Of a stretch of 64,000 nucleotides of DNA, positions 1-64,000 are shown piece after piece (the stretch's first letter is position 1; each line of letters starts with the position of its first letter). The notes beneath the pieces are model-generated. The model ran no database searches. It saw only the letters and a program-made list of their open reading frames with translations, and was not told where the DNA came from. The position numbers and the translations under genes were made by a program. The DNA comes from an uncultured Chloroflexia bacterium (lineage in GTDB: Bacteria > Chloroflexota > Anaerolineae > Promineifilales > UBA4811), in contig CAVPPE010000003.1 of assembly GCA_963707345.1 (NCBI GenBank), forward strand, positions 512,072-576,071. The letters run 5' to 3'.

Positions 1-3
1 TTT

Positions 4-3000
4 TTGTCATTCATCCGTCGTCGGCCGATGCAATCCGTGCACTTGTCCAGTGACTTTTTGCCGCTCCTGCTGGCATTGGTAGCGGCATTGATGGGGCTGC
101 TGTTTCTGGCCCGTCGCCGCCTCTTGCCCGCGGATCGCAGCCGCCTGGTGGAGCGTGTTGCGGAACTGGAGGCACTGGGGCAGGCCGGCCGGGCGCTGGT
201 GGAAGCGCAACTGGACCCGGATGCGCTGTACGAGTTCATTTTTGAGCAGATCAGCACCATCATTGACACGTCTATCTTCCAGCTTGGCCTGTTTGAGGAT
301 GGCTGCTACCGTATTGTGATCTGGGTGCGGGATGGGGAGCGCTGTCCCCCGGCCGAGTTTGACCTGGGCGAGGGGGAGGGGTTGGTGGGATGGGTAGCTC
401 AACACAAGCAGCCACTACTTATTCGCAACTTTCAGAGCGAGTGGCAGGATTTGCCGGCCCGGCCGCGATACATCAGCGAGCACCCACCCAGTTCAGCCAT
501 CTTCATCCCTTTGGTGACAGGCGGCCAGTGCGTGGGAGCCATGGCCGCGCAGAGCTACCAGACCGGTGCTTTTTCCCAAGATGATGTGCGCCGGCTCTCG
601 ATTGTGGCCAACCAGGCAGCTTCGGCCATCGCCAACGCGCGACTCTACCAGCAGGCACAGTCCCGCGCAGCGCAACTCGAGTTGGTCGGCAGCGTGTCAC
701 GCCAGGTTCGCGCCATCACGCCGCTGCCCGATCTGTTTGCACAGACTGTGTCGCTGATACAGCAGACCTTTGGCTACTATTGTGTCAATATCTATAGCTA
801 TGATGCTTCGACTGACCAGGCTGCTTTGCAGGCCAGCACCTCGGCCGATGTGTGGGAGAGCCACCAACAACTGCCGGCCGACGGGGGCTTGATCAACTGG
901 GCAGTCGATCACCGCAAGACGGTGCTGGTCAACGATGTTTCGGCCGATGCGCGTTTTCTCTTCCTAAGCGCCTTGCCGAACACCCGCTCAGAAATGGTAG
1001 TGCCATTGCTGATCGAAGATCATGCGCTGGGCGTGCTGGACCTGCAGAGCGACCGACCGAATGCTTTTGGCTCAGAGGATCAATTTGCGCTGGAAGCGCT
1101 AGCCGACCAGATTGCCTTGGCGATTCAGGAATCCCGGCTGTACAATGCGGAGCGGCACCAACGGTCAGTTGCCGAGACGCTCCGCGAAGTGGCGGAAACC
1201 ATCACCTCTTCATTGGACTTGGAAACGGTGCTTCATGCGATCCTTACCGATTTGCGGCGGGTGTTGCCCTACGACGCGGCATCCGTGTTACTGCTGGAGC
1301 GCGAAGATACCGTGGTGGTTCAGGCTGCCCAGGGGCTGCCCAGTGTAGTTGGCACCCAGGGAGAAGAGTTCTGCCTGGCTGATTCGGAGCGACTGAGCCA
1401 GCTGGCGGAGGTGAATCATCCCATTGTCTTTCACTGTGAGGACGGGGCCGGCTGCTACCATGCCTTGCTGGATTTGCCGCCGGAGCACGCCTGCCTGGGT
1501 GCCCCGCTCATCGCCCGGGGTGAGCTGATTGGTTTCATCACCGTGGATGCGTTGCCGCCGCAAACATACGGGCGCGAGGACGTGGCGGTGATTGCGATGT
1601 TTGCAGGACAGGCGGCCGTGGCCATTGACAATGCCCGCCTCTTTGCATCGCAAAAGGAGGAGGCCTGGGTCTCCGGCGCGCTGTTGCAGATGGCAGAGGC
1701 GACGGCGCGTTCAACCGAGTTGGAGCAGGTGATTGACACCATTGTGCGCATGACCGTTTCTCTGGTGGGGGTAGGCCAGTGCGGTATCCTGCTCTGGCAG
1801 GATGAGCCGGCCGCGTTCCGGGGAACGCAACTGGCCGGCAAGGGGGCAGAACTGACCAACGAGTTTGCCCACATCTGGTTGCCACTCAACACCTGGGCGC
1901 CGCTGGATGCACTCAAAGTTCGGCCGCAGCCGCTCCTGCTGGGCGGCGGCGAGGCGCTCAGCGCGCTGCCGGACGAGCTTTTTGACTTTTTCGGGCTGGA
2001 CAATTGGCTGCTGCTGTTGCCGCTGGTAGCCAAAGGCGAGTTGATGGGGGTAATGTTGGCCTCTGGCGACACGGCCGACGTGGACCTCATTCGTCGCCGG
2101 GTGCACCTGGTTGGAGGGATTGCTAGCCAGGCCGCCATGGCCATTGAGAACGCCCGGCTGTACGCTGCCCAACAGGAAGAAGCGTATGTCACCATCGCCT
2201 TGCTGCAAGTGGCAGAGGCGGTCAACAGCTTGACGAACCTGACGGATATTCTCGACACCATCGTCCGACTGGCGCCCATTCTGGCTGGCGTGGATCGCTG
2301 CGCTATCGTCATCCGGCAGGGGTATCAGGTCTGGGATTGCGGGCCGCATTATGGCTTTGGAACGGAAGAGTGCGTGCTGATGGAGCAATCGCTGTCGCAC
2401 GACTCGATCGTTGACTTTTTGACAGCTATGGAAGAAGGGAATGGTCCGCTAGGTGCCGGGCCTGGCTACCCTTTGCCGTTGCCGGTGGCCTGGCAGGAGT
2501 TGCTGGCGGCCGATGGGTTGCTGGCCCTGCCGCTGGTCACCCGGAGAGAGCTGGTCGGTGCTATCCTGGTCACTTTTCCAGCGCAAGTCGCTCCATTCAG
2601 TTCTCGCCGCCAAAACATTTTGACCGGCATTGCACATCAGGCTTCGATTGCAATTGAAAATGATCAGTTGTACGGCGAGGCGCTGGAGCGTGAGCGGATG
2701 GAGCGGGAGTTGGAAGTGGCGCGCGGTATTCAATCCAGCTTTCTTCCAGACGTGCGGCCGGAGCACCCGGGTTGGAGCGTGGATGCTTTTTGGCGTGCGG
2801 CCCGTCAGGTTGGGGGTGACTTTTACGATTTCTTTCGGCTGACCCGCAGCGCCGAGGAGAGCGAGTTGTGGGGAATTGTGGTGGCAGACGTGGCGGACAA
2901 GGGGGTGCCGGCCGCGCTGTACATGGCTTTGTCCCGCACTCTCATCCGTTCGGTGGGCCACAACCGACACGACCCGGCCGCCTGCCTGGCCCGCGTCAAC

Positions 3001-3450: not shown

Positions 3451-3461
3451 CTTGGCCTCTG

Positions 3462-4892: not shown

Positions 4893-4931
4893 TGGTCACT
4901 CTCCTCCAAATATGCCTCGTAAGGCTTGCAC

Positions 4932-4960
4932 AAAAGCGCCGCCCCCAATTGAGGCGGCGC
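4932..4960 (-). terminator. Intrinsic terminator downstream of rdgB
   Basis: 8-bp GC stem GCGCCGCC/GGCGGCGC (4936-4943 with 4953-4960), followed on the minus strand by TTTT (4932-4935). Confidence 0.5.
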
Positions 4961-5000
4961 GGTGAAAAGTATAGCACAGTTGGGGGGCAGGCACAACCAC

Positions 5001-5606: not shown

Positions 5607-5759
5607 CGCGGCTCCTCAAGCGCCTGCCAAAACTGACTGGCTGAACGATATTACCTCCTCAACAGGTCTGCGCCGATTATACCTGCTCGGCAGGCGGGAT
5701 CAAGGGCCGATTTGCGCCACGGCCGCTCCACTGTCGCCCGCTGTTTTGGCAACGGCCGC

Positions 5760-5787
5760 TTGACTTTCACATCCCCCTCTGTACAAT
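5760..5787 (+). promoter_or_regulatory. Candidate sigma70-type promoter for rmlA-rmlB
   Basis: TTGACT (5760-5765), 16-nt spacer, TACAAT (5782-5787), about 60 nt upstream of the rmlA ATG. Confidence 0.35.
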
Positions 5788-5846
5788 TCTAGCAGTTGCA
5801 CCGACAGGTCGGGGCAGCACACCCAGATAAGGAGTTTGTATCAACT

Positions 5847-7951: not shown

Positions 7952-7973
7952 CCCTATAGGCTGATGTGTTCAA

Positions 7974-8010: not shown

Positions 8011-8013
8011 GTG

Positions 8014-9903: not shown

Positions 9904-9939
9904 AAGGGTGGCCTAAAAGGACAAATGCCGCAAAATCGG

Positions 9940-10787: not shown

Positions 10788-10794
10788 GGAAGGA

Positions 10795-10987
10795 GGCGAA
10801 CCGGGTCTTTTCACAACCCAGGCGTGAAGCGCGAGGGAAGACCGGTGAAACTCCGGAGCTGTCCCGCAACTGTAAGCCTGGCCCTCCCGGCCGGGCAAGC
10901 CAGACACCTTGGCTCCATGACTCTACCCTGAGATCTTCGTGGAAGGAGAACAGGCGTCCATCGATTGGATAGCCTGTTCTTTTTTTA
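10795..10987 (+). promoter_or_regulatory. Cobalamin (B12) riboswitch with intrinsic terminator expression platform
   Basis: Core AGGGAAGACCGGTGAAACTCCGGAGCTGTCCCGCAACTGTAAGC (10834-10877). B12-box-like AAGCCAGACACCTTGGC (10897-10913). Terminator stem GAACAGGC/GCCTGTTC (10948-10955 with 10972-10979) plus T7. Sits directly upstream of the corrinoid protein gene. Confidence 0.8.
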
Positions 10988-11012
10988 TTACATTCATTTA
11001 GGAGGTTTTGCG

Positions 11013-11648
11013 ATGGCAGACATTCTGCAAAAGATAGCGGAGAATTTGTATAGCGGCGAAGAAGAAGAGGTCGCTGCGCTGGTCGAAAAGTGCCTGGAGC
11101 AAGGAATGGCCCCGGCCGATATCCTGTCCAATGGCCTCATCGCTGGCATGGATGTGGTCGGCCGCGATTTCAAGGCGGGCGATCTGTTTGTGCCCGAGGT
11201 GTTGATTGCTGCCCGCGCCATGTCGGCCGGGATGGAAGTGTTGCGGCCGCTGCTGGCCGAGTCGGGTGCCGCCAGCACTGGCAAATTCCTCATCGGCACG
11301 GTCAAGGGCGACCTGCACGACATTGGCAAGAATCTGGTCAAGATGATGCTGGAAGGGGCTGGTTTTGAGACCGTTGACTTGGGCACCGATGTGGAGCCGA
11401 AGGTCTTTGTAGACAAGGTCCGCGAGCACAAGCCCCGCCTGATTGGGATGAGCGCGCTGCTTACCACCACCATGGTGTACATGAAGGCGACCATTGAGGC
11501 GCTGGAAGAAGCTGGCTTGCGCGATTCAGTCAAGATCATGGTGGGCGGCGCTCCGGTAACGGCCGCCTTTGCCCAGGATATTGGCGCCGATGCCTATGCC
11601 CCCGATGCGGCCAGCGCGGTGGACAAAGCGCGCGAACTGACCGCATAA
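11013..11648 (+). CDS. Methyltransferase cognate corrinoid protein (MtbC/MttC/MtgC-like B12-binding protein)
   Basis: ATG 11013 preceded by GGAGG. N-terminal B12-binding cap helix bundle, then a DxHxxG motif (GDLHDIGKN) and MSALLTTT. Confidence 0.9.
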   Translation: MADILQKIAENLYSGEEEEVAALVEKCLEQGMAPADILSNGLIAGMDVVGRDFKAGDLFVPEVLIAARAMSAGMEVLRPLLAESGAASTGKFLIGTVKGDLHDIGKNLVKMMLEGAGFETVDLGTDVEPKVFVDKVREHKPRLIGMSALLTTTMVYMKATIEALEEAGLRDSVKIMVGGAPVTAAFAQDIGADAYAPDAASAVDKARELTA

Positions 11649-11722
11649 AAATGTGACAAGCTGGGCGTGGAACACGGCTAAATGCACCGGTTCCCCGCCC
11701 TTGAGGTAGTGGGGTAGATACG

Positions 11723-13180: not shown

Positions 13181-13243
13181 CACTGTACCTGGCCCCAAAC
13201 CGGCCGGGTACAGGCAACGCGCAAACGATCAAGGAGAGTTCTT

Positions 13244-14686: not shown

Positions 14687-14709
14687 CAGCATGCGTTTGG
14701 GAGTGTGGT

Positions 14710-24316: not shown

Positions 24317-24874
24317 ATGGAACCCTGGAAAACGCTCTCGCGCAAAACCATCCTGGACCACAGTAAATTCCTGCGTGTGGAAGAACATGTGGTGCAACTG
24401 CCGGACGGCCGGGTCATCCCGGACTGGCCCTGGGTGATTGCGCCGGATTATGTTAATGTGGTTATACTGACGGAAGACCGCCGCTGGGTGTTGTTCCGGC
24501 AGGTCAAATACGGGGTAGATGGCACCTCGCTGGCCCCGGTGGGCGGCTATCTGGAGCCGGACGAGGACCCGCTGGCGGCCGCCCAACGGGAGATGCTGGA
24601 GGAGACCGGCTACGCGGCCGACCGGTGGGTCAGCCTGGGGCGCTTTCGGGTGGGGGCCAACCGGGGCTATGGGATGGCCAACTTTTACCTGGCGCTGGGA
24701 GCCCGCCGGGTGGCCGAGCCGGACGCCGATGACCTGGAGGAACAGCAGTTGCTGCTTCTGACACGGGTTGAGGTGGAGCAAGCGCTTGCGACCGGCGGAT
24801 TCAAAGTGCTGGCGTGGGCTTCCATTGTGGCATTGGCATTGCAGCATCTGGATAGGCATGACCCGGATTGTTGA
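24317..24874 (+). CDS. NUDIX hydrolase (ADP-ribose pyrophosphatase-like)
   Basis: Nudix box GGYLEPDEDPLAAAQREMLEETGY. Confidence 0.85.
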   Translation: MEPWKTLSRKTILDHSKFLRVEEHVVQLPDGRVIPDWPWVIAPDYVNVVILTEDRRWVLFRQVKYGVDGTSLAPVGGYLEPDEDPLAAAQREMLEETGYAADRWVSLGRFRVGANRGYGMANFYLALGARRVAEPDADDLEEQQLLLLTRVEVEQALATGGFKVLAWASIVALALQHLDRHDPDC

Positions 24875-26289
24875 CCTGCTGGCGGTGCCGATTGCCGGTG
24901 CATATTACACGGAGGACCTGGCTGCGCTGCAGGCCAGGCCGATCCCGCTGGAGGCGCGCTACACGGCCGAGGCGGTCACGGCAGGCTTTCACGCCGTGCG
25001 ACAGGTGGCGGAAGGGGTCTCCGTGGGGCTGGTGCTCGAACTCGGGCCAGGTGGCCTGGGGCGACTGCGTGGCGGTGGCCTACAGCGGCAAGGCCGGCCG
25101 GGAGCCGGTCTTTTCCAGTCAGGCAGGAATGACCGCCATCCGGGAGCGGGTTGCTTCGCTGCTGATTGGGCGTTCGCTGACCAGCTTTCGCGAGTTGGCG
25201 GCCGCGGTGGACGCGCTGACAGAAGAGGTGACGGTAGAGCGGCCGGCCCCACCGCCAGAGTTGGCCGATGAAGACCCCATCATCCGGCCGGAGATGTCCC
25301 GCCGCGAGTTGCTGACGGCTCCGGCCCGCTTTCTCCGCGCGGTGCAGCAGGAGGTGGAGACGGAATCCGGGCCGGCGATGGAGCAAGTGCTGCTAACCCG
25401 GCCGCTTCATCCAGCCGTCCGCTACGGTGTCAGCCAGGCGCTACTGGCGGCCGCGGCGCAAGCGCGCCACCGGACCATGGCCGAGGTGATTTGCCAGGAG
25501 TGGGGCCTGCCCCGGCCGGTGGCGCTGGTTCCCATCCACGCCCAATGCGGGGGTGATCGCTACCACGGGGCGGACAAGATGATCGTTCGGCGAGTAACCT
25601 CGTTGCCTCACGCGCTGGTTGACGATATCCCGGAGCAGTTGGGCTCCGACGGGGGCAAGCTGGTGCAATACGTCCGCTGGCTGGCCGGCCGCATCCGGCA
25701 ATTGGGCGGCCCCAATTACCGGCCGACGATCCACATCGACGTCCACGGCGCGCTGGGCAAGATCTTTGACAACCAGCCAGGCAGGGTCTTGGGCCAGTTG
25801 GGCGCGCTCGAAAAAGCGGCGCAGCCCTATCCGTTACGGGTCGAATGCCCGGTGATGCTGGACAGCCGCCAGGCGCAGATGGACGCCATGCGCACCTTGC
25901 GCGACTATCTCCGCTTTCGCAAGTTTTCCGTCCAGTTGGTGGCTGACGAATGGGCCAACACGCTGGACGACATTTGCGCGTTTGCCGCGGCCGGCGCGGC
26001 CGATATGATCCAGATCAAAATGCCCGACCTGGGGGGCATCCACAACGCGGTGGACGCCGTGCTGGTTTGCAATGCGGCCGGGGTGGAGGCTTTCCTGGGG
26101 GGGAGTTGCGCCGAAACCGACCTCTCCGCCCGGGTTTCCGTACACCTGGCGCTGGCCGCACGGCCGGCGATGGTGATGGCCAAACCCGGCATGGGGGTGG
26201 ATGAGGCGGTGGTGCTGGCGCAAAACGAGATGGCCCGCACCCTGGCCTGGCTCCAGGCGTCGCCGGCCGGGGATTGGCATTTGACATAA
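24858..26289 (+). pseudogene. mal: Methylaspartate ammonia-lyase family enzyme (enolase superfamily), frame broken by a 1-nt insertion near 25044-25048
   Basis: N-terminus MTRIVDLLAVPIAGAYYTEDL...VSVGLVLELG lies in frame 0 and continues as QVAWGDCVAVAYSGKAGREPVF in frame +1. The C-terminus ADMIQIKMPDLGGIHNAVDAVL...AKPGMGVDEAVVLAQNEMARTLAWL matches MAL hallmarks, including the QIK catalytic lysine context. Confidence 0.85.
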
Positions 26290-26303
26290 TCAGAAAGGCA
26301 ACT

Positions 26304-37474: not shown

Positions 37475-37540
37475 AGTGTATCCAAGCGGCCGCTAAACGC
37501 CAAGTGGACGACCGCGCGGATCCTGTTACAATCGGCCGCC

Positions 37541-50814: not shown

Positions 50815-52007
50815 ACGAATTGGGAGTCGACTGGCGGGCAGAAGCGGATGGCCTGCGCGATCGGTTGGTTGTTTGGCGACGCGATTTCCACATGCATCCC
50901 GAGATTGGGTTTCAGGAGTATCGCACGGCCGGGGTGGTGGCGGCCGAACTGGAGCGGCTGGGTTACGTGGTCCATTCCGGCGTGGCCCAAACCGGCGTGG
51001 TGGGCCTGCTGGCACCCGGACGGCCTGGCCCCACGGTGCTGCTCCGCTTTGATATGGATTGCCTCCCCCTGCAAGAGGAAAACGACGTCCCGTACCGTTC
51101 CCAGAACGACGGGCTGATGCATGCCTGCGGCCATGATGGGCACGTTTCCATTGGCCTGGGCGTGGCGACCTTGCTGGCTCGCCATCGTGATCAATTGAGC
51201 GGGGCGGTCAAACTGATGTTCCAGCCCGGCGAGGAAGGGATGAACGGCGCGGCCGCGATGGTTGAGGCGGGCGTGCTGGATCAGTATGGCCCCCGGCCGG
51301 ACGTCGCCCTGGCGGCGCACCTGTGGAACGATCTGCCTTTGGGGCAGGTTGGCGCAGCCGCTGGGCCGGTGATGGCGGCGGCCGAGGCCTGGGAGTGCCA
51401 GATCAAGGGCAAGGGCGGGCACGGCGCCGCCCCCCACCAGACGGCCGATCCGGTGGTGGCAGCCGCTCAACTGGTCCTGGCCTGGCAAACTGTGGTCAGC
51501 CGCAATGTCAATCCGCAGGAGACGGCCGTGCTCAGCGTGGGCGCCATCCATGCGGGCGAAGCTTTTAACATCATTCCCCACTCGGCGACGCTGAGGGGCA
51601 CCATTCGCACTTTTTCTCCCAAGGTTCGGGAGACCGTGCTGCGCCGCTTTGAAGAGATTGCCCAGCACGTGTGCGCGGCGCATCACTGCCAGGCGGAGAT
51701 CAAGCTGATGCCCCTGACCCCGGCCGTGGTCAATCATGCAGATGTGACCGCCACGGTTCGCCAGGTGGCGGCCGAACTGGTCGGTGCGGATAATGTGCTC
51801 GACGTCCGCACGATGGGCTCCGAGGACATGGCCTTTGTCAACGCCCAGGTGCCGGGCTGCTATCTTTTTGTGGGGTCGCGTAACCAGTCGGCCGGGTTGG
51901 TGCATCCGCACCACAGCCCAAACTTTGATTTTGATGAAGATGCCTTGCCGCTGGCGGTGGGGCTGTTGACGGTCGCGGCCGCACGGTACCTGACAGGTCA
52001 GGCATGA
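50811..52007 (+). CDS. M20D-family amidohydrolase (N-acyl-amino acid amidohydrolase/hippuricase-like)
   Basis: [46 protein letters not shown]. Confidence 0.88.
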
Positions 52008-53473
52008 ACCAGCAGGCAACCCCGGCCGTGGTCGTCATCTTTGGCGCGTCTGGCGACCTGGCACAGCGCAAGCTGGTGCCGGCACTCCACAGCCTGAACT
52101 GCGAGAACCTGCTGCCGCCCACCACCCAGTTGATCGGCGTTGCCCGCAGCCCCCTGTCGGACCAGGCTTTCCGCGACCATCTTTATCAGGGGGTGGAGGC
52201 CTACTCGCGGCTCAAACCCGGCCTCTGCCAGCTTTGGGCTGGCTTTGCCGGCCGGCTGTCCTACCTGGCCGGGGGCTATGATGACCCAACTACCTATCAG
52301 CGGCTGGCGGAACGGCTGGCTCAACTGGACGCCACGGCCGGGACCAATGGCAATCACCTCTTTTACCTGGCTACCCCGCCGTCGCTGTATCCGGTCATCA
52401 TCCGTCAACTGGGCCAGGCCGGTCTGCATCGGGGCCAAACCGGCTGGAGCCGGATTATCATCGAAAAGCCATTTGGGCATGGCCAGGAGAGCGCCCGGGC
52501 GCTCAACCGGGAGGTGCACGCGGTCTTTCAGGAGGATCAGGTTTACCGCATTGACCATTACCTGGGCAAGGAGACGGTGCAAAACATCCTCGCCTTTCGC
52601 TTTGCCAACGCCATCTTTGAACCCCTGTGGAACCGCAACTATGTGGACCACGTGCAGATCACGGTTGCGGAACAGGTCGGTGTGGGCCATCGGGCTGGCT
52701 ATTACGACCGGGCTGGCGTGCTGCGCGACATGTTCCAGAACCATCTGCTCCAGTTGCTGGCACTGACCGCCATGGAGCCCCCGGCCGTCCTGAATGCCAA
52801 CGCGCTGCGCGATGAAAAGGTCAAGGTTCTGCGCTCGACGCGCGTGGCTGGGAGTGTGCGGGGGCAGTACGCGGGTTATCGCCGGGAAGAGGGAGTCGCG
52901 CCTGACTCGCAGACGCCCACCTTTGCGGCGCTGCAACTATATGTGGACAATTGGCGCTGGCGCAGCGTGCCTTTTTATCTGCGCTCCGGCAAGGCGCTTG
53001 CAGAAAAGACCACCGAGATCGCCATCCAGTTCAAGTGCGTGCCCCACCTGATGTTTCCTCTCCCGGCCGACGGCCGCATCACACCCAACCTGCTCTCATT
53101 ATGCCTCCAGCCGGATGAAGGGATTCACCTGCGCTTTGAGACCAAGGTCCCCGGTGCCGGCATGCAGACCCGCTCGGTGGACATGGAGTTCCACTACGCG
53201 GACGATTTTGGCGCGGCCGCGTTGCCGGACGCCTACGAGCGGTTGCTGCTGGACGCTGTCCAGGGCGACGCCGCCCTGTTTGCCCGCGCCGACGAGATTG
53301 AGCTGGCCTGGGGGCTGGTGGACCCGCTGCTGGCCGGCCGGGACCGGTCGGAGGCAGAGCCACTGGCTGTTTACCAGCCGGGTAGCTGGGGCCCGGCCGA
53401 GGCGGACGCCTTCTTGGCGGCCGATGGCCGTGCCTGGGTCAGCGGCTGCGGCGGCCACGATCCGGCCGGATGA
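52004..53473 (+). CDS. zwf: Glucose-6-phosphate 1-dehydrogenase
   Basis: [37 protein letters not shown]. Confidence 0.93.
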
Positions 53474-54192
53474 CTGAATACCGCGTCTTTCCGAATGCCA
53501 GTGCGGTTGCCGAGGCGGCGGCCAACCTCTTGGCGCAATTGGCTCAAGGTGCCGTGCGGGAGCGCGGCCGGTTTGCGGTCGCGCTGGCCGGGGGCAAAAC
53601 CCCTCGCGCGACGTACGCCCTGCTCGCCCGGCCGCCGTGGCGGGAGCAGATCCCCTGGCCGCAGGTGCACCTCTTTTGGGGGGATGAGCGCTGCGTCCCG
53701 CCGGATCATGACGCCAGCAACTACCGGCTGGCCCGGGAAGTGTTGCTGGATCACGTCTCGCTGCTGGCCGACCAGGTCCACCGCGTTCCGGGCGAACTGG
53801 AGCCGGAGGCGGCCGCGCAGGCCTATACCGACGAGCTGATGGTATTTTTTGGCGTGGATTGGCCCCAATTTGACCTGGTGCTGTTGGGGATGGGGGCCGA
53901 TGGGCACACCGCCTCCCTCTTTCCCAACTCGGCCGCCTTGCAGGTCCGTGACCGGCCGGTGGTGGCAGTGTCGGCCGACTACCAGGGGCGGCCGGCGGGG
54001 CGCGTGACGCTGACATTGCCGGCCATCAACGCGGCGCGGCAGGTGCTTTTTCTGGTGACCGGCGCGGCCAAAGCGGACGCCGTCAAAGCTACCCTGATAG
54101 AACAGGCCCCCCTCCCGGCCGCCATGGTTCGGCCGGAATCGGGGGGCCTGCTCTGGTTGTTGGACGCGGCCGCGGCCGGCCAGGTGGCCTAG
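53470..54192 (+). CDS. pgl: 6-phosphogluconolactonase
   Basis: [24 protein letters not shown] and [15 protein letters not shown]. 4-nt overlap with zwf. Confidence 0.9.
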
Positions 54193-57100: not shown

Positions 57101-58289
57101 CACCCTCGTCGGCCGTGGTGTCCTCCGCCCACGTGATTATTGCCAGCCTGCAAAAGTGGTGTTCCACCCCTTGCGGCGGGGCGGCGCTCAACTCGTCGAT
57201 CTTGCCGGTCGCGGTGCGGGCGGCAAAGGTCCAATAATCGCCAGGCTGGAAATCCGCACCAGAGAACGCGATCTGGACCCCATCCTCCAGCAGAATCGGC
57301 CCGGCCGCGACGGGAATGACGTCGCTGCCCTGATCCCAGCGCCGCACCCTGGCCCCGGTCCCGGCCGTCACCGCCCGGTCCAGCGTCAGGACGCGCTGGG
57401 CCGCGTCGACCTGGTTGATCTTTGCCATCGTTCCGGGCCGCAGCCAGAGGTCGTCAGCCTCATCCAGCACCTCCACCCAGTCGCCCGGCTGCAAGGCCAG
57501 CACCTGGTCCCGGCCGAGCTGCTTGAGCTGCACCTTGGTGGGTTCGGCCGGGAGCATGTCCTCCACGGCATAGACCACCGCGCCATTGTCGCGCGACCAT
57601 TTAAAGGTGGCAGCCCCCATCCCATCGCCATCGTGGATCTCCACCCGGTAGAGTCGGTTTTCCAGCCCACGGTAGCCACCGCCGGCCGGGATCAGGCACG
57701 GATCGGCTGCACCGGGGTCGATCAGCACGCTGGTGGTGAGCTTGCCGCGCTGATCGAGCGGCGGCACCGGCGGCCAGGGGTCAAACTCGCCCTCGCAGTC
57801 GGTCTCCTCCACCCCCGGCCGGACGCGCACCTGCCACACCGTTTGCAGGCGGGTGGTGGTGTCCGCGCCGCCCAGCGCCGGCTCCAGCAGTTCCGGATCC
57901 TCTACGGCCGTCACGTGCCGCTGCCAGATGTCCAGATAGACCAGGTCGACCCGGCCGTCCTGCGGGTTCAACGCCGGCGGGTTTGGTAGGTCGGGTTGGC
58001 TGGCATAGCTGTCCCCCTCAGCCACGCAAACGATGCCGCCAGCGTACAGCCGGCCGTCGGTCAGCGTCAGGTCGTCCCCGGCTGGGGTGGGGGTCACCCC
58101 AAAACCGGCATCGAACTTGGGCACGCCGCACTGGCCGATGACGTCGGTGGCGCGGGTCTCATCCAGGTATGCCTGGATGGCGGCCGACTCGTTCCAGTCA
58201 GCGTCCAGGTCCACCCGGCCCTGCTGCTTCAGCACGCGGGCGAATGGCTTCTTTGGGTCAAAGGTAAAACGTGTGAAATCCCCTTTCAT
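54189..58289 (-). CDS. 1366-aa multidomain protein in the tail-fibre slot of a phage-tail-like locus
   Basis: Uninterrupted 4.1-kb ORF, 13 nt downstream of the gpI-like gene. N-terminus FDPKKPFARVLKQQGRVDLDADWNE...GYRGLENRLYRVEIHDG. Propeller-like strands (IAVDPNGERVYFLNGVSRTITVV). DCFCHHLLVNCPECG. C-terminal heptads. See findings. Confidence 0.8.
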   Translation of the reverse strand: MKGDFTRFTFDPKKPFARVLKQQGRVDLDADWNESAAIQAYLDETRATDVIGQCGVPKFDAGFGVTPTPAGDDLTLTDGRLYAGGIVCVAEGDSYASQPDLPNPPALNPQDGRVDLVYLDIWQRHVTAVEDPELLEPALGGADTTTRLQTVWQVRVRPGVEETDCEGEFDPWPPVPPLDQRGKLTTSVLIDPGAADPCLIPAGGGYRGLENRLYRVEIHDGDGMGAATFKWSRDNGAVVYAVEDMLPAEPTKVQLKQLGRDQVLALQPGDWVEVLDEADDLWLRPGTMAKINQVDAAQRVLTLDRAVTAGTGARVRRWDQGSDVIPVAAGPILLEDGVQIAFSGADFQPGDYWTFAARTATGKIDELSAAPPQGVEHHFCRLAIITWAEDTTADEGEEWADSTVEDCRPHFPPLTKICAEDVCYDDSNCDAVNATTVQEALDQLCALRDLSHHNKHLHGWGVVCGLQVECEDDPEVVSDRVTVIVRPGYALDCEGRDLVLDENLSVPVLELVQAWEAAHPNQPLLKEKDGKRYGEFSLVIELDANGQPQVDVRPYTPNKNPLEQWLKGSILADFYRDCIAEPFKELIELLTGAAADDDEGGLVSARWKQLITLVNLLVQFPYPLFGKHVYLSDKEDDILRRLYFQLRDVLQSKTFCAMFDDAPQFPDYPFEDIEMSTIFGLSPHTRLRIHPSGAAGYAVGYDDEIHVFDLRKEELVKIVEMPGGEGLVVQDVAFSADGEQLYAIGSVNNENTVFAAAEIQDGEYRWRPVTILCDVVLKTLARPGKFKDRLLAVGRGEESGLFLISKLNDSQPTIKLVTPFKAAGHLVLADDVQRAFASAASANAPAGVEFDQVLEIDWSNFTVTFTYQLPSLGAQTTGRDDIAVVPFGDAIKLYAVASVAGSEDRKLCIFPWHQANPSATLDMPDTQIRLAHVPGSEYLIATAADWFLAGLVEVANDTVVPVLPGDLPPFVLPLQIGPMGIAVDPNGERVYFLNGVSRTITVVSADYLQPTATADPIPGNQAFYDALVDYRAKVFAAFVALIGGLVQYLKDCFCHHLLVNCPECGEEDEVYLAAVQVRDEEVFKVCNFSQRQYVKSFPTMGYWLSFLPITPLVDWAVEQVCCMVFPNLLAGFVQKRTQAQAAAMPKATQLNVGLAAVQSGLLQRKLAETVSTVKLAQNVTGDWLGGQVGQLLFRPQEKAEAQKNEVVDQPLEKALENAEDANATIERVEKYDPSLGLKNLQAVGRMPATFAAGDRLVLYEQDGVVRYFVRAEDAPKSAEVVRVETEAQQAAAAKVEALGTSLEEMKTTLAQKDQELVALRGQLQTLEQKQATLEAAPPKVAKLETELKELRTFKKDVQDFMTRMGG

Positions 58290-58302
58290 CGTTGCCTCCT
58301 GG

Positions 58303-60390
58303 TCACGTCACGTAAATGATCCCTGGCTCCAGGCCAAAGGGCAGGTACTCTTCCAATCGGATGCGCAAATTAGTCTCCCGCTGCGGCTGCATCAGGCTGC
58401 AAAACGCGCCCATCTCCGAGCCATCGGCCGCGCCGGTGCGAATCTCGTCCGGGCAATCGTGCCCCAACTGGCCGTAGCCCGGATCGCCGTAGTGGGTAGA
58501 AGTATAGCTGGGGCGCAGGCAGGCCAGGATGGCAGTGTGCTGGGCGGCCGGGGCCTTGTCCAGCGCCAGGTCTGGCTGGCAGCGGTAGCGGCGCGGAGTG
58601 GTGGAGCCGTCCGGCACAAAGCTTAAGCGGACGCAGCCGTTTTGCCGGCGGGCCGCCCGGACTTGACCGTCGAAAATGCACTCGGATGCGGTCAGCTCTT
58701 TGACGTACACTTCGCCCCAAAAGGTGGAGCGTTCGGCCGTGGTGGGAGGCCCCGGCCGGGTGGCCTCGTCGTTGGCGGCGATGGCCGGCTGCGGCAGATG
58801 GCCCACCGGCAAACCCTGCACCATGCTGTCGCGGATGGTCAAACTCTCACAGTCGGCCGGCAAGCGCAGCGGGCCGGTGATGCTCTTGTCAATGGTTACT
58901 GCCAGGTCGGCCGAGCGGCTGCCCACCAGCGTCAGGCTGTCCAGGTCCGGGAAGCGGGGCCGCCCATCTTCACGCAACAGCCGGCCGGGCACTAGCGTGC
59001 AGTGCGCCAGAGTCAGCTTCAGGTCGCCCTTCAGCCGCAGCGCCCCGCCGATCAGCAATCCGTTGAGCGTCAATTCGGCATCGCCGGCCGGCGCGCTGAG
59101 CACCGGCTGACCCACCGGCAGCACCACCGGCCGGAAGCCGTTCTTGGCCTCGATGACCAGCTTGCCATCGGCCGGCAACTGGATGTTGAACAGCCCCCCG
59201 TAAACGCCATTGTCCACAATCTGGATGACGGCTGGCGCCTTGCTGTGGGTCACCTCCCACTCATTCAGCCCATCCTGCAGCGTGCGATTGGGCAACTGCT
59301 TGCCAACCTGGATGAGCACCAGCCCGCGCCGCCCGGCCGCCAGCGATTCCTTTCGGTCGTACGGGCCGCCGCCCATCTCGGCGCTAAAGCCGTAGGTCAT
59401 GTCCACCGTCACTGCGCGCGGGGCGATGCCGGCCGGAAAAGCGATCCGGCCGTGGCGCACATCCACCGCCACCTTGCCGGCCGGGGGGTCTCCCCAGGTG
59501 GAGAGGTCCTGGCAGACAATCTCGGAGAGCGGGACCAGGTCCAGTGGGTCGGCCGTGGGGCCGCGGTAGATAGCCAGGCTTTTGCCCGGCCCGTAGAAAT
59601 CGGCCGGCCGGAAGTAAAAGGCGGCCGGGCGGATCGGGCCGGGGACGTGCAACTCGGTCGCCAACTGGTCGGCGGCCGCCTCCCGCTCCGGGTTGGTAAA
59701 GAGCGGGGCGGGGTTGCCCAGCGGGCTAAAATAAAAGCCACGCGAGAAGCTGCCAGAGCGCCGCGCCGGAACCCCCGTCATGGGGAACTGGCTTAACCGC
59801 CAGAGGAAAAAGTTGATCTTGCGGATGTTGTGCCGGCCGACCCGCTGATCGGCCGGGCGCACATCCACTGTGTGGCAAAGGGTGTCAAACGGCCCATCCA
59901 GCCGGTCCGCGGCGTCCATCTCCCGCAGGTTGACCGTTCCCACCCGGCCGATGGCGTGTGGGAAGCGATGGTCCGGGTTGGCCGCCGTTGTGTAGCGCAA
60001 ATGGTTGACGTTCTGGGTCCAGCCTAGGTTCTCAAAGGCCGCCACCGCGTGCGCACCCCAGTTGGTCACGTCGCGGGCCAGCTCTTCCAGCATGGGCAGC
60101 ACCCCCTTGCGCCGCCGGTAAGAGATGGTCTTGGCGACATCGGCGCGGCGCCCCTGGATGATCTCGTAGAGCGGATTGTTGCCCACCAGATCGCCGATGT
60201 AGGGGATCACCCAATCTGCACAGGTCTCAATAAACAGATCGTCCCACAGGCCGTCAACGTCCCGCTTGAGGATGTCCACCTGCTCCGCGACAATTTCCAG
60301 CAGCGCACGGAGTGGATAGCCTTGCTCGGCGTCGCGCATACGGTAGACGGCCGGGAGCAACTGATACAGGTCCACAGCTTTATCGCTCAT
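58303..60390 (-). CDS. Phage-tail-like baseplate protein (P2 gpI / Afp12 / gp7-position, TIGR02242-like N-terminus)
   Basis: LYQLLPAVYRMRDAEQGYPLRALLEIVAEQVDIL...ETCADWVIPYIGDLVGN. ATGA overlap with the upstream gpJ-like gene. Confidence 0.8.
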   Translation of the reverse strand: MSDKAVDLYQLLPAVYRMRDAEQGYPLRALLEIVAEQVDILKRDVDGLWDDLFIETCADWVIPYIGDLVGNNPLYEIIQGRRADVAKTISYRRRKGVLPMLEELARDVTNWGAHAVAAFENLGWTQNVNHLRYTTAANPDHRFPHAIGRVGTVNLREMDAADRLDGPFDTLCHTVDVRPADQRVGRHNIRKINFFLWRLSQFPMTGVPARRSGSFSRGFYFSPLGNPAPLFTNPEREAAADQLATELHVPGPIRPAAFYFRPADFYGPGKSLAIYRGPTADPLDLVPLSEIVCQDLSTWGDPPAGKVAVDVRHGRIAFPAGIAPRAVTVDMTYGFSAEMGGGPYDRKESLAAGRRGLVLIQVGKQLPNRTLQDGLNEWEVTHSKAPAVIQIVDNGVYGGLFNIQLPADGKLVIEAKNGFRPVVLPVGQPVLSAPAGDAELTLNGLLIGGALRLKGDLKLTLAHCTLVPGRLLREDGRPRFPDLDSLTLVGSRSADLAVTIDKSITGPLRLPADCESLTIRDSMVQGLPVGHLPQPAIAANDEATRPGPPTTAERSTFWGEVYVKELTASECIFDGQVRAARRQNGCVRLSFVPDGSTTPRRYRCQPDLALDKAPAAQHTAILACLRPSYTSTHYGDPGYGQLGHDCPDEIRTGAADGSEMGAFCSLMQPQRETNLRIRLEEYLPFGLEPGIIYVT

Positions 60391-63071
60391 GTTTCACCTG
60401 TCAGTCCAAGTGTGATGGTGATATCGGCCGCGGCCAGTGTCGCCAGTTCGTCAAGCCAGATGGCCAGGTGGGCTTGCACCGGGTCGACCGTCGCGCCGTG
60501 GCTGGCTCGATCGGCCGGGCTCTTGAATTGCAGCCGATTCACTTCCACCGCCTCCACCCCCTCCACCTCCTGCACCACGCGGTACACGTCGCTCAGGTGG
60601 ATGGGTTGGCCCAGGTTCAGGTTGTCAAAATCAAAATAATCAGCCAGAGTCGATTGGGCGGCCGCTTGCACCGTCTCGGTCTGGTAACTGGCATCCAGCT
60701 TGATGGCCGCCTCAATTTGCAGCGCGACCGGGTGGTAATCGCTCACGATCAGCTTGCGGTTGGGGTCGCGCCGGCTGTCCAGGTCGGCGACCAGGTTTTT
60801 GTGCGTATCGCCGCCCGGCTCGACCGGCGCGCCGTCGTCACCCGCTACAGTGAGCAGCACAACCTGCTCCATGCCATCCCACTGCCAGCTAGCGCGTGCC
60901 TTGGCGATGCCGGCATAGGCGCGAGCCGCATCCTCAAAGTCGCGCAGGGAGACCACCCGCTCAAAGGTGCGGACGGTGTTGGGGGCGTTGGTGCGGGCCT
61001 GTGCCAGGCTCTCCGGTTCGGCACCCCCGGCCGCCGCGGCCGGGTTGGTGGCCGATTTGAGGCCAGTGGGTTTGTCCAATAGGGTGGTCAGCACCCCGGC
61101 CGTGATGTTGCCATCCTGCCCGATCCCTTGCCGGTAGTTGCCGATGACGTTGTTGCGGCCGGTGGGCAAACGCGCCCCGGTGGTCCCGTCGCCAAACTGG
61201 ATGGTCATCTCGCCCTCGTCGTCGACACGGGTCACAAAGACCCGCTCGTCGGCCGGCCGGCCGTAGAGCGAATCCCGCTCCTGCCATTTGACGCCGTCCA
61301 CCCGTATCTGTAGAGTGTTTGCCGCGCCGTTCTTGGCCCCCGCCTGGGGGACAAAGGTGACCGGCGACTTTTTGAGCGCAAACGACTGGAGTCCCTGGCT
61401 GGCGTCGCCGCTACCCAACACTTCGTCTGCTACGGTTTCGCCGTGGGTGACGAGCACCACGTTGGCCCGGCCGGTGGCCGTGGCGCTGACCAGCGAATCC
61501 TGCAGCGCGTCCGCCAGCGTAATCTTGAGGTGGTCTCCTTCTACCGCGATGCTGCTGATTTTGCTGGCCTGCGCCCGGCCGGCCCCATCCTCCAAAATGA
61601 TCCGCCGGCCGGAGACCAGATACTGGGCGCGTTCGGCCGCGGTCAACCCCAACTCGGACAGGGGCACATAGACTGCATTGCCGCTGATGGTGGGGCCGTA
61701 TTGGGATTGCCACAATGAGATAGGAGGGCCTTCCAGTTCGTAGACCACGGCCGAGCGCACGTCGATGCCGATGGGTAGTTGCGGCGACACGGCGACCCGC
61801 GTGACGGTGGCTTGCATGACGGGCGGTCCGGTCCCGCTGGTGGGGATCTGTGCGGCAACCTGCTCGACGGCGGTCACCGTCACGGTTTGGACCACCGCGC
61901 CGTTTCTGAGCTTGCCGGCCACCAGCAGCTCGGTGTTCTCTTTCAAATCGTCGTACACACCATCCAGTTGTAGCAAGGCGTAACCGGCCGTGTACGGATC
62001 AAAGCTCTTTTCCTGCCAGAGCACGTTGTTGTGGCTATCCACGCTGACGGAAAAGAACTTAGCCGGGGCGTTGTGACCAAAAAGGCGGAACTTGCGCGTC
62101 CATTTGTGGATCTTGGCTCCGGCCGAAAAGCTGCAGCGCACGGCCGGTTCCCAGGTGATCTCCTGCCGCCAGTCCACTTGCTGGATGTCCGCTACTTCTT
62201 TGTCCTCCACATGGACCGGGTTATCGCAGCCGGTGTAAACCGGTGTGATTTCAATTCCAGGTATGGGCGCTTTCTCTGCCTTTTCCAGTAAATCATCTTC
62301 CATCTCGGCCAGCAGTTCCTGAATGCGGTGCCGGGCTTCCTTTACCTGCTTGCTCACATGGTCAGCCATCTCACCCAGGCCCAGGTCAACGGTGGGGCCT
62401 GCCATGGCCTGAACAAGAACGGGCTGGTAGATGACGATCTTTTCCCCGGCCGCCAGGTAGCTGATGTCCCCCAGCGCGGTGGCTACGGTTCGCCCGGCCG
62501 CCAGTGGCGTATCGGCAGTAGGCTGGGGGTAGACGCGGAAGTGGTTGAGCGGCGGTATGACTGTCAGCGTCTCAACCGTCTCGAATTTCTGCGGTTTCTC
62601 GTCTTGCCCCGGCACGCTCTGCGCCCGCAGGCCGATGGGAATCACCACCGTTTTTCCCTTGTCCACGGTAAAGGCCAGTTGAGTGGTGGCGGCCATGCCG
62701 TTGGCCGGCCGGTAGTCGAGCAGCGCTGCCAACCGCAACACCGACTCGCGGTGCACCGCTGTGCGCAAGTACGCCTCGTTGGCAATCCGTTCCTGGTAAA
62801 AGGTCAGGATATCGGCCAGGTAAGCCCACATCTCCAACAAGGCAATACCAAAATCGTCACTCTGGCGGGAGGTCCAGTCGTTCAGCGGCCGGATAGGTTT
62901 GTGCCCTTGCTCCGGCGTGATTTTGGTCCCGGCGATCGCTTGCAGCATCGCCTGGCGGAAGGTGGGGTAGCTGCCCACCCGGTAGACGACGGCCGAAAGG
63001 CCCGGCCGGTTATCCATGCATTCGGGCGTCGGGGGAACCGGCGCCTGGCAACAGCCACACGAGTCGCTCAT
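60387..63071 (-). CDS. Baseplate J (gpJ/gp6/Afp11)-like putative baseplate assembly protein
   Basis: N-terminus MSDSCGCCQAPVPPTPECMDNRPGLSAVVYRVGSYPTFRQAML. gpJ-type motifs NYRQGIGQDGN and GGAEPESLAQARTNAPNTVRTFERVVSLRDFE. Confidence 0.85.
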   Translation of the reverse strand: MSDSCGCCQAPVPPTPECMDNRPGLSAVVYRVGSYPTFRQAMLQAIAGTKITPEQGHKPIRPLNDWTSRQSDDFGIALLEMWAYLADILTFYQERIANEAYLRTAVHRESVLRLAALLDYRPANGMAATTQLAFTVDKGKTVVIPIGLRAQSVPGQDEKPQKFETVETLTVIPPLNHFRVYPQPTADTPLAAGRTVATALGDISYLAAGEKIVIYQPVLVQAMAGPTVDLGLGEMADHVSKQVKEARHRIQELLAEMEDDLLEKAEKAPIPGIEITPVYTGCDNPVHVEDKEVADIQQVDWRQEITWEPAVRCSFSAGAKIHKWTRKFRLFGHNAPAKFFSVSVDSHNNVLWQEKSFDPYTAGYALLQLDGVYDDLKENTELLVAGKLRNGAVVQTVTVTAVEQVAAQIPTSGTGPPVMQATVTRVAVSPQLPIGIDVRSAVVYELEGPPISLWQSQYGPTISGNAVYVPLSELGLTAAERAQYLVSGRRIILEDGAGRAQASKISSIAVEGDHLKITLADALQDSLVSATATGRANVVLVTHGETVADEVLGSGDASQGLQSFALKKSPVTFVPQAGAKNGAANTLQIRVDGVKWQERDSLYGRPADERVFVTRVDDEGEMTIQFGDGTTGARLPTGRNNVIGNYRQGIGQDGNITAGVLTTLLDKPTGLKSATNPAAAAGGAEPESLAQARTNAPNTVRTFERVVSLRDFEDAARAYAGIAKARASWQWDGMEQVVLLTVAGDDGAPVEPGGDTHKNLVADLDSRRDPNRKLIVSDYHPVALQIEAAIKLDASYQTETVQAAAQSTLADYFDFDNLNLGQPIHLSDVYRVVQEVEGVEAVEVNRLQFKSPADRASHGATVDPVQAHLAIWLDELATLAAADITITLGLTGET

Positions 63072-64000
63072 TTTCCACCTAGCATGTTCAGGCGCAGCAC
63101 GCCGTGTTCCTGAAAATTGGGGTCGTTATCCAGCCGCGCCACCTCCAGGCGACCCAGCGGGATGTACCCCTGATCCAATTCGCTATTGGCCGCCTTGCCA
63201 AACCGTTGAAATAGCTTCACCTCGGCCGAATCTACCCCTTCCACCGCCTCCACGGCCGCATACAGCTTGCTCAAATATACCGACTGCCCAAAGGTCCACT
63301 GGTCGGGGTGGAAAAAGCCACCCGGCCGGTTGCTGAGCGCCTTGAGAACTGCCTGTTGGACGTGAGCCCGGAAATGGGTCGGCGCCACGCAGACGTCGAT
63401 CTCGATCTCTAGCGACACATAAGTTGGCGGGTCGATCTCCAAATCGTAGCCGGCCTGAGTAAAGCGGCGCACCCAGGCCTTGATTCGCTCCTGCAACGCC
63501 GCGGGCAGATCGGCCCGGCCGACCGGGTCCACGGTGATAAAGACGGTGTGCCAACTCCCGGTCCAGCGAAAGGTGGCCACCGCTTTGGAGACATCAGGGT
63601 GTTTTCCGGCCGCCCGGGCGTAATCCGCCTCGGTGACCGCTCGCAACTGCTCAGCGTGGAAGGCGGCCGGGGCCAGTTGTTTTGCCTGCTCGATGGGCTC
63701 CGGATCGATTCCGCCCCAGGCCGGCAGCGGGTTGCGCACGGCCGTCACGTCGGGCCAGGCAAGTGCGGCCGCCGGCCGGATCAGATGACTGAGCGCTTCT
63801 GCCCCCACGTTGCCCGCGCTGCCCACCCCGACCCGGTAGTCCACTCTCACATTGGCCTTGTCGGGCGGGGCAGCACCGTATTCGTTGTCGCCAAAGCGGA
63901 GCAGCGGCCGGCCGTCGTTGTCGGTCTCGACCGCAACGTGGTGGGCAAAGTCATCGCTGTCCAACAAATGGAGCACCGGTTGCCAGTCATCGGCCGGGGA
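63068..64000 (-). CDS. Baseplate J-like protein (C-terminal part; 5' end beyond the window)
   Basis: The frame stays open to 64000. DYRVGVGSAGNVGAEAL and GGIDPEPIEQAKQLAPAAFHAEQLRAVTEADY are gpJ-type motifs. ATGA overlap with the downstream gene. Confidence 0.8.
   Translation of the reverse strand, partial: SPADDWQPVLHLLDSDDFAHHVAVETDNDGRPLLRFGDNEYGAAPPDKANVRVDYRVGVGSAGNVGAEALSHLIRPAAALAWPDVTAVRNPLPAWGGIDPEPIEQAKQLAPAAFHAEQLRAVTEADYARAAGKHPDVSKAVATFRWTGSWHTVFITVDPVGRADLPAALQERIKAWVRRFTQAGYDLEIDPPTYVSLEIEIDVCVAPTHFRAHVQQAVLKALSNRPGGFFHPDQWTFGQSVYLSKLYAAVEAVEGVDSAEVKLFQRFGKAANSELDQGYIPLGRLEVARLDNDPNFQEHGVLRLNMLGGK

Follow-up and report, generated by a model that had tools for sequence, protein, structure and literature searches.

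CGGCCG as a probable HIP-like iterated palindrome in a 64-kb stretch of a Chloroflexota genome

The stretch of DNA considered here comprises 64,000 nucleotides (nt) from an uncultured Chloroflexia bacterium (GenBank assembly GCA_963707345.1, contig CAVPPE010000003.1, positions 512,072 to 576,071; hereafter the window), and the element in question is the palindromic hexamer CGGCCG, which is scattered throughout it in large excess. The gene content is that of an ordinary chromosome, and includes a GAF/SpoIIE gene, paralogs of MttB with a corrinoid protein, an Opp-type ABC transporter, NuoB/CD, Mrp, glucose-6-phosphate dehydrogenase and 6-phosphogluconolactonase (G6PD/6PGL), MutY, and a contractile-injection cluster with baseplate-J and DUF6519 proteins. 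A set of 49 gene models was assembled from open reading frames (ORFs) displaying the expected pattern of G+C (GC) content at the three codon positions (GC1/GC2/GC3), with Pfam matches as support; the gene starts are approximate. By these models the window is approximately 97% coding and its genes are intact. Its base composition is 62.2% GC (G, 0.326; C, 0.296). The analysis covers these 64 kb, and the genome-wide status of the CGGCCG excess is assumed.

CGGCCG occurs 434 times in the window, or 6.8 times per kb and once per 147 nt, where the zero-order expectation is 57.2, giving an observed-to-expected ratio (O/E) of 7.6. It ranks first in frequency among all 4096 hexamers, and the next in line, GGCCGG (255) and CCGGCC (218), are its own one-base shifts. 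The median O/E per gene is 7.0, with values above 3 in 46 of the 49 genes, and the density is 6.4 per kb in forward-strand genes and 7.5 per kb in reverse-strand genes. Between genes the excess is larger still, with 12 sites in 2,023 non-coding nt (54.5% GC) against 0.82 expected (O/E 14.6; Poisson P ~1e-10). The population and its intergenic and overlapping members are as follows.

1..64000, no strand assigned: the CGGCCG population, 434 dispersed sites (first at 22, last at 63991) making up 4.0% of bases, present in all 49 gene models and in spacers
5720..5758, no strand assigned: two intergenic sites, at 5720 and 5753, in the spacer 5607-5795
9944, 10888, 13201, 16149, 23246, 32433, 44592, 47861, 47924 and 63991, no strand assigned: other sites outside the gene models; that at 63991 is beyond the final, truncated gene model and could be coding
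61250..61263, no strand assigned: the overlapping run CGGCCGGCCGGCCG, with three base-sharing sites, read from the sequence
18872, 22041, 39256, 48912, 59601 and 63905, no strand assigned: starts of overlapping double sites, read from the sequence

Other GC-rich palindromes are rare or depleted by the same zero-order measure, as seen for GGCGCC (27 copies; O/E 0.47), CCGCGG (33; 0.58) and CCCGGG (19; 0.33). The initial annotation of this DNA, which had described CGGCCG as massively over-represented and the first two of these palindromes as rare, was right on both counts. Its hand counts in five blocks (4, 6, 7, 3 and 11) agree exactly with the census, and its example sites at 22, 186 and 350 are present in the codon phases it gave them. 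Its estimates of a roughly 10-fold enrichment and of about one site per 100 nt were somewhat too high, because the sampled blocks are richer than the window average.

The excess belongs to the exact hexamer. Among the 16 words of the form NGGCCN, only CGGCCG is enriched, and when overlaps with CGGCCG are masked, its sub-words and shifts (GGCC, CCGG, CGGC, GCCG, GCCGGC, GGCCGG, CCGGCC, GCGGCC and TCGGCC) return to O/E values of 0.6-1.0. The Markov O/E of the hexamer declines from 7.5 at order 1 to 4.3, 2.5 and 1.3 at orders 2, 3 and 4, because the sub-words on which the higher orders are conditioned themselves consist of CGGCCG. As the initial annotation had also remarked, the flanks are variable: there is a mild preference for C at position -1 and G at +1 (~41-43%), with the two sides independent of each other (140 complementary pairs against 129 expected), and the extended palindrome CCGGCCGG is found 83 times, near the ~76 calculated from independent flanks. 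A longer true motif is thus ruled out, given the independent flanks and the O/E of no more than 1 for overlapping words once masked. The commonest 10-mer in the window has 13 copies.

The spacing of sites is near Poisson, with a coefficient of variation of 1.03 and a per-kb variance-to-mean ratio of 1.3, and density tracks local GC content (r=0.70). The only periodicity in site spacing is the 3-nt codon period, with nothing at 8-13 nt, in a window of 64 kb that is too short for the longer periods of the cyanobacterial highly iterated palindrome HIP1. No clustering, arrays or gradient of sites was found within the window. The highest densities (7-12 per kb) fall at positions 54189-64000 on the reverse strand, in a contractile-injection-system-like cluster that encodes a 1366-residue DUF6519 protein (weak CIS13 match), a 695-residue protein without a family match and two baseplate-J-like proteins. 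Because these densities top the window, the cluster is not a recent import.

Within genes, the word is read in all three codon phases, with 87 sites as CGG-CCG, 240 as xCG-GCC-Gxx and 101 as xxC-GGC-CGx, of which the following are examples.

22..27, forward strand: a site in phase CGG-CCG (Arg-Pro), in the GAF/SpoIIE gene
186..191, forward strand: a site in phase xxC-GGC-CGx (x-Gly-Arg), read from the sequence
350..355, forward strand: a site in phase xCG-GCC-Gxx (x-Ala-x), read from the sequence

Three codon-aware null models of increasing stringency were applied. Shuffling with the protein sequence and the codon usage of each gene held fixed leaves CGGCCG at an O/E of 3.40 (z=30.6); with dinucleotides also fixed the value is 2.66 (z=27.5), and with all in-phase trinucleotides also fixed, 1.66 (z=18.9). 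Every phase retains its excess under all three shuffles. Under the first two, CGGCCG is the extreme outlier of the 4096 hexamers, and no word apart from those overlapping it is strongly positive. An amino-acid-controlled baseline was provided by the called genes of four sister loci of equal GC content (~53 kb), which differ from the genes of the window. Arg-Pro contexts hold CGGCCG in 69% of cases in the window and 7% in the sisters (Fisher P 2e-16), [APTS]-Ala-[AGDEV] contexts in 69% and 20% (P 1e-25), and x-Gly-Arg contexts in 64% and 22% (P 3e-10). A near-equal occupancy of two-thirds in three unrelated phases is hard to explain other than by a force acting on the DNA word. If the sisters are taken as a neutral baseline, the pooled odds ratio of ~10 would correspond to a scaled advantage S of ~2-3 per site.

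The proteins themselves have been altered. Outside the motif, codon usage in the window matches that of the sisters, as does the overall amino-acid composition. Peptide contexts compatible with the word are nonetheless 1.5-1.8 times as frequent per 1000 codons as in the sisters, and the dipeptides RP (1.38) and GR (1.43) contrast with their reversed counterparts PR (0.63) and RG (0.79). The order of residues is rearranged and their frequencies are kept. The initial annotation had argued from the occurrence of the word in three phases and in both gene orientations that a DNA-level process comparable to HIP1, rather than an amino-acid or codon preference, was at work. The 64-69% occupancy in all phases, the larger intergenic excess and the remodelled adjacency of residues with unchanged usage away from the motif all uphold that argument. 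The excess likewise persists after correction for composition and codons and is confined to no single phase, the two points on which the argument had been staked.

The hexamer was further surveyed in 80 related loci. Its O/E there lies mostly between 0.2 and 2, and only two loci, L055 and L057, reach 5.8-7.3. In the five closest relatives (L081-L085; GC 61-63%) it is 0.9-1.6. The window carries 6.7 times the CGGCCG of the pooled DNA of these five, and no one-mismatch neighbour word shifts by more than ~1.5-fold. With its nearest relatives near an O/E of 1, the excess is therefore private to the lineage of the window. By its G6PD the organism belongs among uncultured Anaerolineae (Chloroflexota): the closest G6PD in a species-representative genome is 73% identical, the best among 5.8 billion proteins is 78% identical, and those of the five nearest relatives are 77-78% identical. 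A scan of metagenomes for a sister strain with exact 39-mers returned only G6PD genes at 72-74% identity.

At the other extreme, CGGCCG is entirely missing from nine Anaerolineae or Chloroflexota loci in which 4.6-17 copies are expected (L012, L021, L039, L047, L048, L051, L056, L069 and L079), for example from L056 (0 against 17). Genomes with a resident restriction-modification system usually avoid the site it recognises (PMC4687349). The zero-copy loci have this classic signature of restriction avoidance, which indicates that cognate restriction enzymes circulate in the class.

Similar departures affect other palindromes. CAGCTG (PvuII-type) is the most under-represented hexamer in the window, with 6 copies (at 1399, 12352, 15343, 48548, 50713 and 54416) against 38-55 expected from codon shuffles (z ~-8), and is absent from the four closest relatives L081-L084, where 4-7 are expected in each; this suggests an old, clade-wide restriction avoidance. 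Also depleted in the window are GGGCCC (10 against 37 expected), GGCGCC (26 against 64) and CCCGGG (19 against 48). Over-representation of 5-14-fold is seen among the relatives for GCGCGC (L040, L053 and L059), for TGATCA (L056, L027 and L073) and, in L064, for CGAGCTCG, ATCGAT and GAGCTC, so that lineage-specific palindrome excesses may be common in Chloroflexota. A repeat array is suggested in the 21-kb locus L035 (Chloroflexi bacterium RBG_19FT_COMBO_62_14) by 9-12 copies of the 10-mer GTCTTGTGTC and its shifted forms.

The two related loci with a high O/E, both from Chloroflexota/Ardenticatenaceae (GC 53-57%), display a variant of the phenomenon. There, the octamer palindrome ACGGCCGT, built on the same core, makes up 42 of 66 CGGCCG sites (L055) and 41 of 51 (L057). 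Its density of 1,930-1,960 per Mb (L055:1-21416 and L057:1-21201; O/E 80-104) is within the range of HIP1. As a comparison of octamer conservation, the two loci have only G6PD in common, at 72% nucleotide identity, which is too little. The octamer is also found at 2-3.7 per kb in several IMG/VR contigs (from a set comprising L220, L273, L206, L216, L295, L319, L289 and L239), and intermediate, hexamer-like types exist, namely L289 (52% GC; CGGCCG 6.6 per kb, O/E 22) and L239. The genes of L220, which encode ParA, an FtsK/VirD4-like ATPase, a VirB1-like transglycosylase and an anti-repressor, look like those of a plasmid or an integrative and conjugative element (ICE) rather than a lytic phage. 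A scan of viral contigs for CGGCCG triplets returned mostly chance matches in contigs of ~67% GC (median O/E 2.1), and none of the contigs from it is related to the genes of the window. Iterated palindromes with a CGGCCG core thus recur in Chloroflexota and in the mobile DNA of the phylum, with lineage-specific flanks.

The origin of individual sites was traced in two genes, G6PD and methylaspartate ammonia-lyase (MAAL), each aligned with its 119 nearest homologs.

52004..54192, forward strand: the G6PD and 6-phosphogluconolactonase genes, with 22 CGGCCG sites
24868..26289, forward strand: the MAAL gene, with 15 CGGCCG sites; the ORF starts ~67 codons upstream of the called gene
53335..53340, forward strand: a G6PD site made by an amino-acid change, Trp in 66 of 86 orthologs and Arg here

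Each of the 22 sites in G6PD and 6PGL is common to only 0-3 (in one case, 8) of 44-85 orthologs. Of 26 sites in the two aligned enzymes, 15 lie at positions where fewer than 20% of the 119 homologs have a peptide compatible with the word, and therefore amino-acid replacements were needed there; the remaining 11 lie in conserved compatible peptides and were made synonymously. Sites in G6PD avoid conserved columns (permutation P<0.001), and a trend of the same kind in MAAL is not significant. The replacement at 53335, TGG to CGG, converts CGGCTG, as found in the relative L084, to CGGCCG. None of 25 sites lies in a lineage-specific insertion. The sites therefore arose by substitution, and insertion of a 6-nt unit or of a tiny mobile element is ruled out as their source.

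Near-miss words bear on the mechanism. In synonymous contexts, transversion neighbours of the hexamer fall from 0.377 per context in the sisters to 0.106 in the window, and transition neighbours stay level (0.078 against 0.074), so that the share of transitions among synonymous near-misses rises from 17% to 41% (P=2e-5). The words that deamination of the site would yield are present at 0.86 (TGGCCG/CGGCCA), 1.18 (CAGCCG/CGGCTG) and 1.09 (CGACCG/CGGTCG) of their frequency in the sisters, with a codon-shuffle O/E of 0.76-1.21. A fixation bias favouring the exact hexamer, whatever the starting word, would give such a pattern when set against the ordinary transition decay of a now very large pool of sites; a repair bias limited to a single type of mismatch would not.

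On balance, CGGCCG is probably a lineage-specific, HIP-like iterated palindrome that arose by fixation bias and serves as the recognition site of a resident modification enzyme of the EagI/XmaIII type. What the bias favours is the hexamer at the level of DNA, with equal strength in the three phases and in spacers. It has brought about two-thirds of synonymously compatible contexts to CGGCCG and has also promoted amino-acid replacements that create compatible peptides, for the most part where the protein is weakly constrained. Following the split from the sampled relatives, a directional, genome-wide fixation bias would have favoured any substitution that created the exact hexamer. Sites arise by point substitution, with neighbour words of every kind as the starting point, and would be lost by ordinary C-to-T transitions. 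The enzyme that recognises the word would most probably be a cytosine methyltransferase (N4 or C5), either an orphan or one of long residence, that modifies CGG(C)CG and, as proposed for HIP1, modified sites could confer a small per-site advantage or a transmission bias in the handling of self-DNA. Candidate benefits include the uptake and recombination of conspecific DNA, and strand or self discrimination in repair. A link between CGGCCG and methylation is probable by analogy with other systems: in cyanobacteria, the alternate HIPs of 5-6 nt (GCsGC and rCCGGy) are found together with methyltransferases of matching specificity (PMC4390886), transformation is up to 100-fold more efficient when HIP1 is methylated (10.1101/2024.09.10.611283), and supplementary tables of Nanomotif list the palindrome CGGCCG among methylated motifs, with the modification on its fourth base, in an anaerobic-digester metagenome-assembled genome (MAG; code 21839) and in a fecal MAG (code m). 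We read these codes as N4-methylcytosine (4mC) and 5-methylcytosine (5mC), respectively. The CGGCCG site counts of these MAGs are ordinary.

Several other accounts of the excess have to be weighed. That it merely follows from the composition of a GC-rich genome, whether in bases, codons, codon pairs or amino acids, has a negligible probability: the order-4 Markov O/E of only 1.3 and the correlation of density with local GC content could be taken that way, yet sisters of equal GC content, codon usage and amino-acid composition sit at an O/E of ~1, the excess survives all three synonymous shuffles in all phases and extends to spacers, usage away from the motif is unchanged, and the Markov ratio is lowered by an excess of sub-words that itself consists of CGGCCG. 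Composition is ruled out on these grounds. Spurious sites generated by systematic long-read errors at a modified motif are also most improbable. Modified motifs do cause systematic nanopore errors, and the source is a single 845-kb contig, compatible with long-read assembly. Such errors, however, are for the most part transitions and usually erase motifs, whereas the class drained here is that of transversion neighbours; ~370 convergent substitutions per 64 kb (~0.6%) would be needed, yet the genes are intact and 97% of the window is coding. Moreover, the sites in G6PD keep clear of conserved protein columns, as expected of genuine evolved changes, and the octamer excess appears in contigs named NODE_..._cov_..., which suggests independent, probably short-read assemblies. 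A sequence-specific function in DNA binding or structure unrelated to modification, such as that of a nucleoid protein, condensin loading or segregation, would be in keeping with sites that are dense and even over all genes and spacers, and with a palindrome as expected for a dimeric binder. This account is nevertheless improbable. There is no helical or longer periodicity, clustering or gradient, density follows local GC content, and the avoidance of CGGCCG in relatives points to restriction-modification enzymology; the structural or periodic role raised in the initial annotation thus finds no support, the sole periodicity being that of codons. To our knowledge, no nucleoid protein recognises a 6-bp GC palindrome at 6.8 sites per kb.

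Two further accounts involve the enzymology of methylation or of DNA transfer more directly. Under very-short-patch (VSP) repair, which was also raised in the initial annotation, a C5-methyltransferase would act on CGGCCG and a Vsr-like endonuclease would turn near-cognate T:G mismatches into C:G, leaving the word as a mutational by-product of the kind proposed for CCWGG in Escherichia coli (Dcm/Vsr). CGGCCG is a known target of cytosine methylation (Nanomotif), the Trp-to-Arg change at 53335 is exactly the expected conversion of CGGCTG to CGGCCG, and among transition neighbours only the class from C4, the base methylated in other organisms (CGGTCG/CGACCG), is not elevated (4/114 against 7/140, not significant). 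The deamination-product words, in contrast, are not depleted, the neighbours that are drained are those one transversion away, and many sites, such as those with LP changed to RP or AQD to AAD, called for a transversion or for several changes. In addition, the Dcm/Vsr effect is much smaller than 7-fold, and the window contains no vsr gene. VSP repair is accordingly disfavoured as the cause and has a poor chance of being correct. A signal for DNA uptake or transformation, resembling the uptake signal sequences (USS) of Haemophilus and the DNA uptake sequences (DUS) of Neisseria, could spread without methylation by molecular drive, if the uptake or recombination machinery preferred CGGCCG-rich DNA and site-bearing alleles were transmitted more often. 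The presence of sites in all frames, in spacers and at weakly constrained protein positions, together with their lineage specificity, matches the pattern of uptake sequences, and plasmid- or ICE-like mobile DNA in ACGGCCGT-rich hosts has the octamer at up to 3.7 per kb. Known uptake sequences, on the other hand, are 9-12 nt long, non-palindromic and present at ~1 per kb, and a 6-nt palindrome would discriminate only ~7-fold per kb. There are no competence genes in the window, and we know of no natural competence in Anaerolineae. HIP1 has recently been proposed as an uptake signal (2026 preprint), but its effect on transformation is largely methylation-dependent. Overall, a methylation-free uptake signal appears unlikely, though it has somewhat more to commend it than a binding function or VSP repair.

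A HIP-like palindrome recognised by a resident modification enzyme faces difficulties of its own. A Pfam search and a screen of Pfam-less ORFs found no methyltransferase, restriction enzyme, Vsr or competence gene in the 64-kb window, and the ORFs of that screen yielded no defence or restriction-modification gene. The proposed tie to methylation draws on analogy and on other organisms, and the window stands in for a genome whose status is assumed. With the closest relative at 78% protein identity, a lack of shared sites is uninformative about conservation. The quasi-periodicity of HIP1 is not seen, though 64 kb gives little power, and a hexamer at 6.8 per kb is shorter and ~2.5 times denser than any described HIP, such that the analogy is perhaps imperfect. 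A bolder proposal, which we offer tentatively, is that Chloroflexota independently evolved a HIP-type system on the EagI core, as the bare hexamer here and as ACGGCCGT in Ardenticatenaceae-like lineages and plasmid- or ICE-like elements. The methylated word would then be a tag of self-recognition for uptake, recombination or repair, spread by a transmission bias (S ~2-3 per site) that overrides protein selection at hundreds of positions per 64 kb, and sisters carrying the restriction enzyme would purge the word.

Other features of the window are recorded here as observations in their own right. Positions 10965-16146 and 26274-27752 encode four MttB-family (trimethylamine methyltransferase-like) paralogs and a B12-binding corrinoid protein; these adjoin the Opp-type ABC transporter, MAAL and a PrpD-like protein, and the region looks like a cluster for the utilisation of methylated or quaternary amines. 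At 38605-39426, on the reverse strand, a DEDDh (RNase T/DnaQ-like) exonuclease is fused to a WYL domain and adjoins the MutY gene (37283-38599); the fusion protein matches the PADLOC candidate defence family PDC-S48 (E=7e-40). GC skew is positive over 1-52 kb and negative over 52-64 kb, and the flip near 52000-54000 coincides with a switch in gene orientation from mostly forward to mostly reverse.

HIP1 has been a puzzle of cyanobacterial genomics for three decades, with comparative evidence so far from one phylum and essentially one word. The CGGCCG case is independent, and involves another phylum, another restriction-modification core, a hexamer in place of an octamer and a higher density. 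As the class includes lineages that avoid CGGCCG, are neutral to it, or are saturated with the hexamer or the octamer, it amounts to a natural experiment on which genes (methyltransferase, restriction enzyme, repair, competence and type IV secretion system) co-vary with the word, and on whether selection, repair or transmission bias drives its accumulation. Were an independent HIP-type system to be confirmed, iterated palindromes would be a general, recurrent outcome of methyltransferase domestication beyond cyanobacteria. On a practical level, a site every ~150 nt distorts k-mer-based binning, codon-usage statistics and the detection of horizontal gene transfer, digests of such DNA with EagI or NotI-type enzymes would be extreme, and the motif could mark the lineage and so link plasmids or viruses to their hosts.

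In the literature searched, no report was found of hyper-abundance of CGGCCG or ACGGCCGT, or of a HIP-like element in Chloroflexota, and the word is best placed by comparison with known systems. CGGCCG is the site of EagI, XmaIII and Eco52I. The recognition word of these type II systems is identical, CGG(C)CG methylation is observed in environmental MAGs, and the nine zero-copy loci fit active EagI-type restriction in those relatives; unlike with a resident EagI-type restriction-modification system, the window is saturated rather than depleted and holds no such genes. As in the Dcm/Vsr effect on CCWGG in E. coli, the target of a cytosine methyltransferase would be over-represented through a DNA-level process. 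The VSP effect is small and accompanied by depletion of T-containing neighbour words, whereas here the excess is ~7-fold and those neighbours are not depleted. USS and DUS share over-representation in all frames, protein changes at weakly constrained positions and lineage specificity, and with them, too, a transmission or fixation bias explains the sites, not a function at each one. CGGCCG does not belong among them by motif, being a 6-nt palindrome at 6.8 per kb whose flanks add no conserved positions; USS and DUS are long, non-palindromic words (9-12 nt, ~1 per kb) tied to a known competence receptor. Repetitive extragenic palindromes (REP/REPIN), miniature inverted-repeat transposable elements (MITEs) and very small mobile elements are ruled out by the variable flanks and by the 0 of 25 sites in insertions, as is a Chi-like hotspot, since a self-complementary word cannot carry orientation.

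The closest resemblance is to the HIPs, namely HIP1 (GCGATCGC) and its alternates GGGATCCC, GCsGC and rCCGGy. Like these, CGGCCG is a short, GC-rich palindrome that is hyper-abundant in all frames and in non-coding DNA, and is patchy among related lineages, with relatives that have no excess or that have the alternate word ACGGCCGT. As in the HIP class sensu Elhai 2015, it exceeds compositional and Markov expectations, is independent of frame, extends to non-coding DNA and is lineage-specific. HIP1 is likewise not explained by codon usage, and its sites are under selection (PMC5861425); the key evidence is that they are kept between related genomes more than control palindromes are (Xu et al. 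2018). Both words have a type II restriction-modification core, CGATCG (PvuI-type) in HIP1 and CGGCCG (EagI-type) here. CGGCCG is not HIP1 proper, as it is neither GCGATCGC nor a word containing CGATCG, and is instead HIP-like. It differs from HIP1 in phylum and in word, in having six bases and free flanks where HIP1 is an octamer, in showing no periodicity detected in 64 kb, and in being denser, at 6,780 sites per Mb when HIP1 ranges over 300-2,700 per Mb (PMC4390886). The octamer ACGGCCGT of L055 and L057, at 1,930-1,960 per Mb and an O/E of 80-104, is a closer formal analogue of HIP1 than the hexamer of the window.

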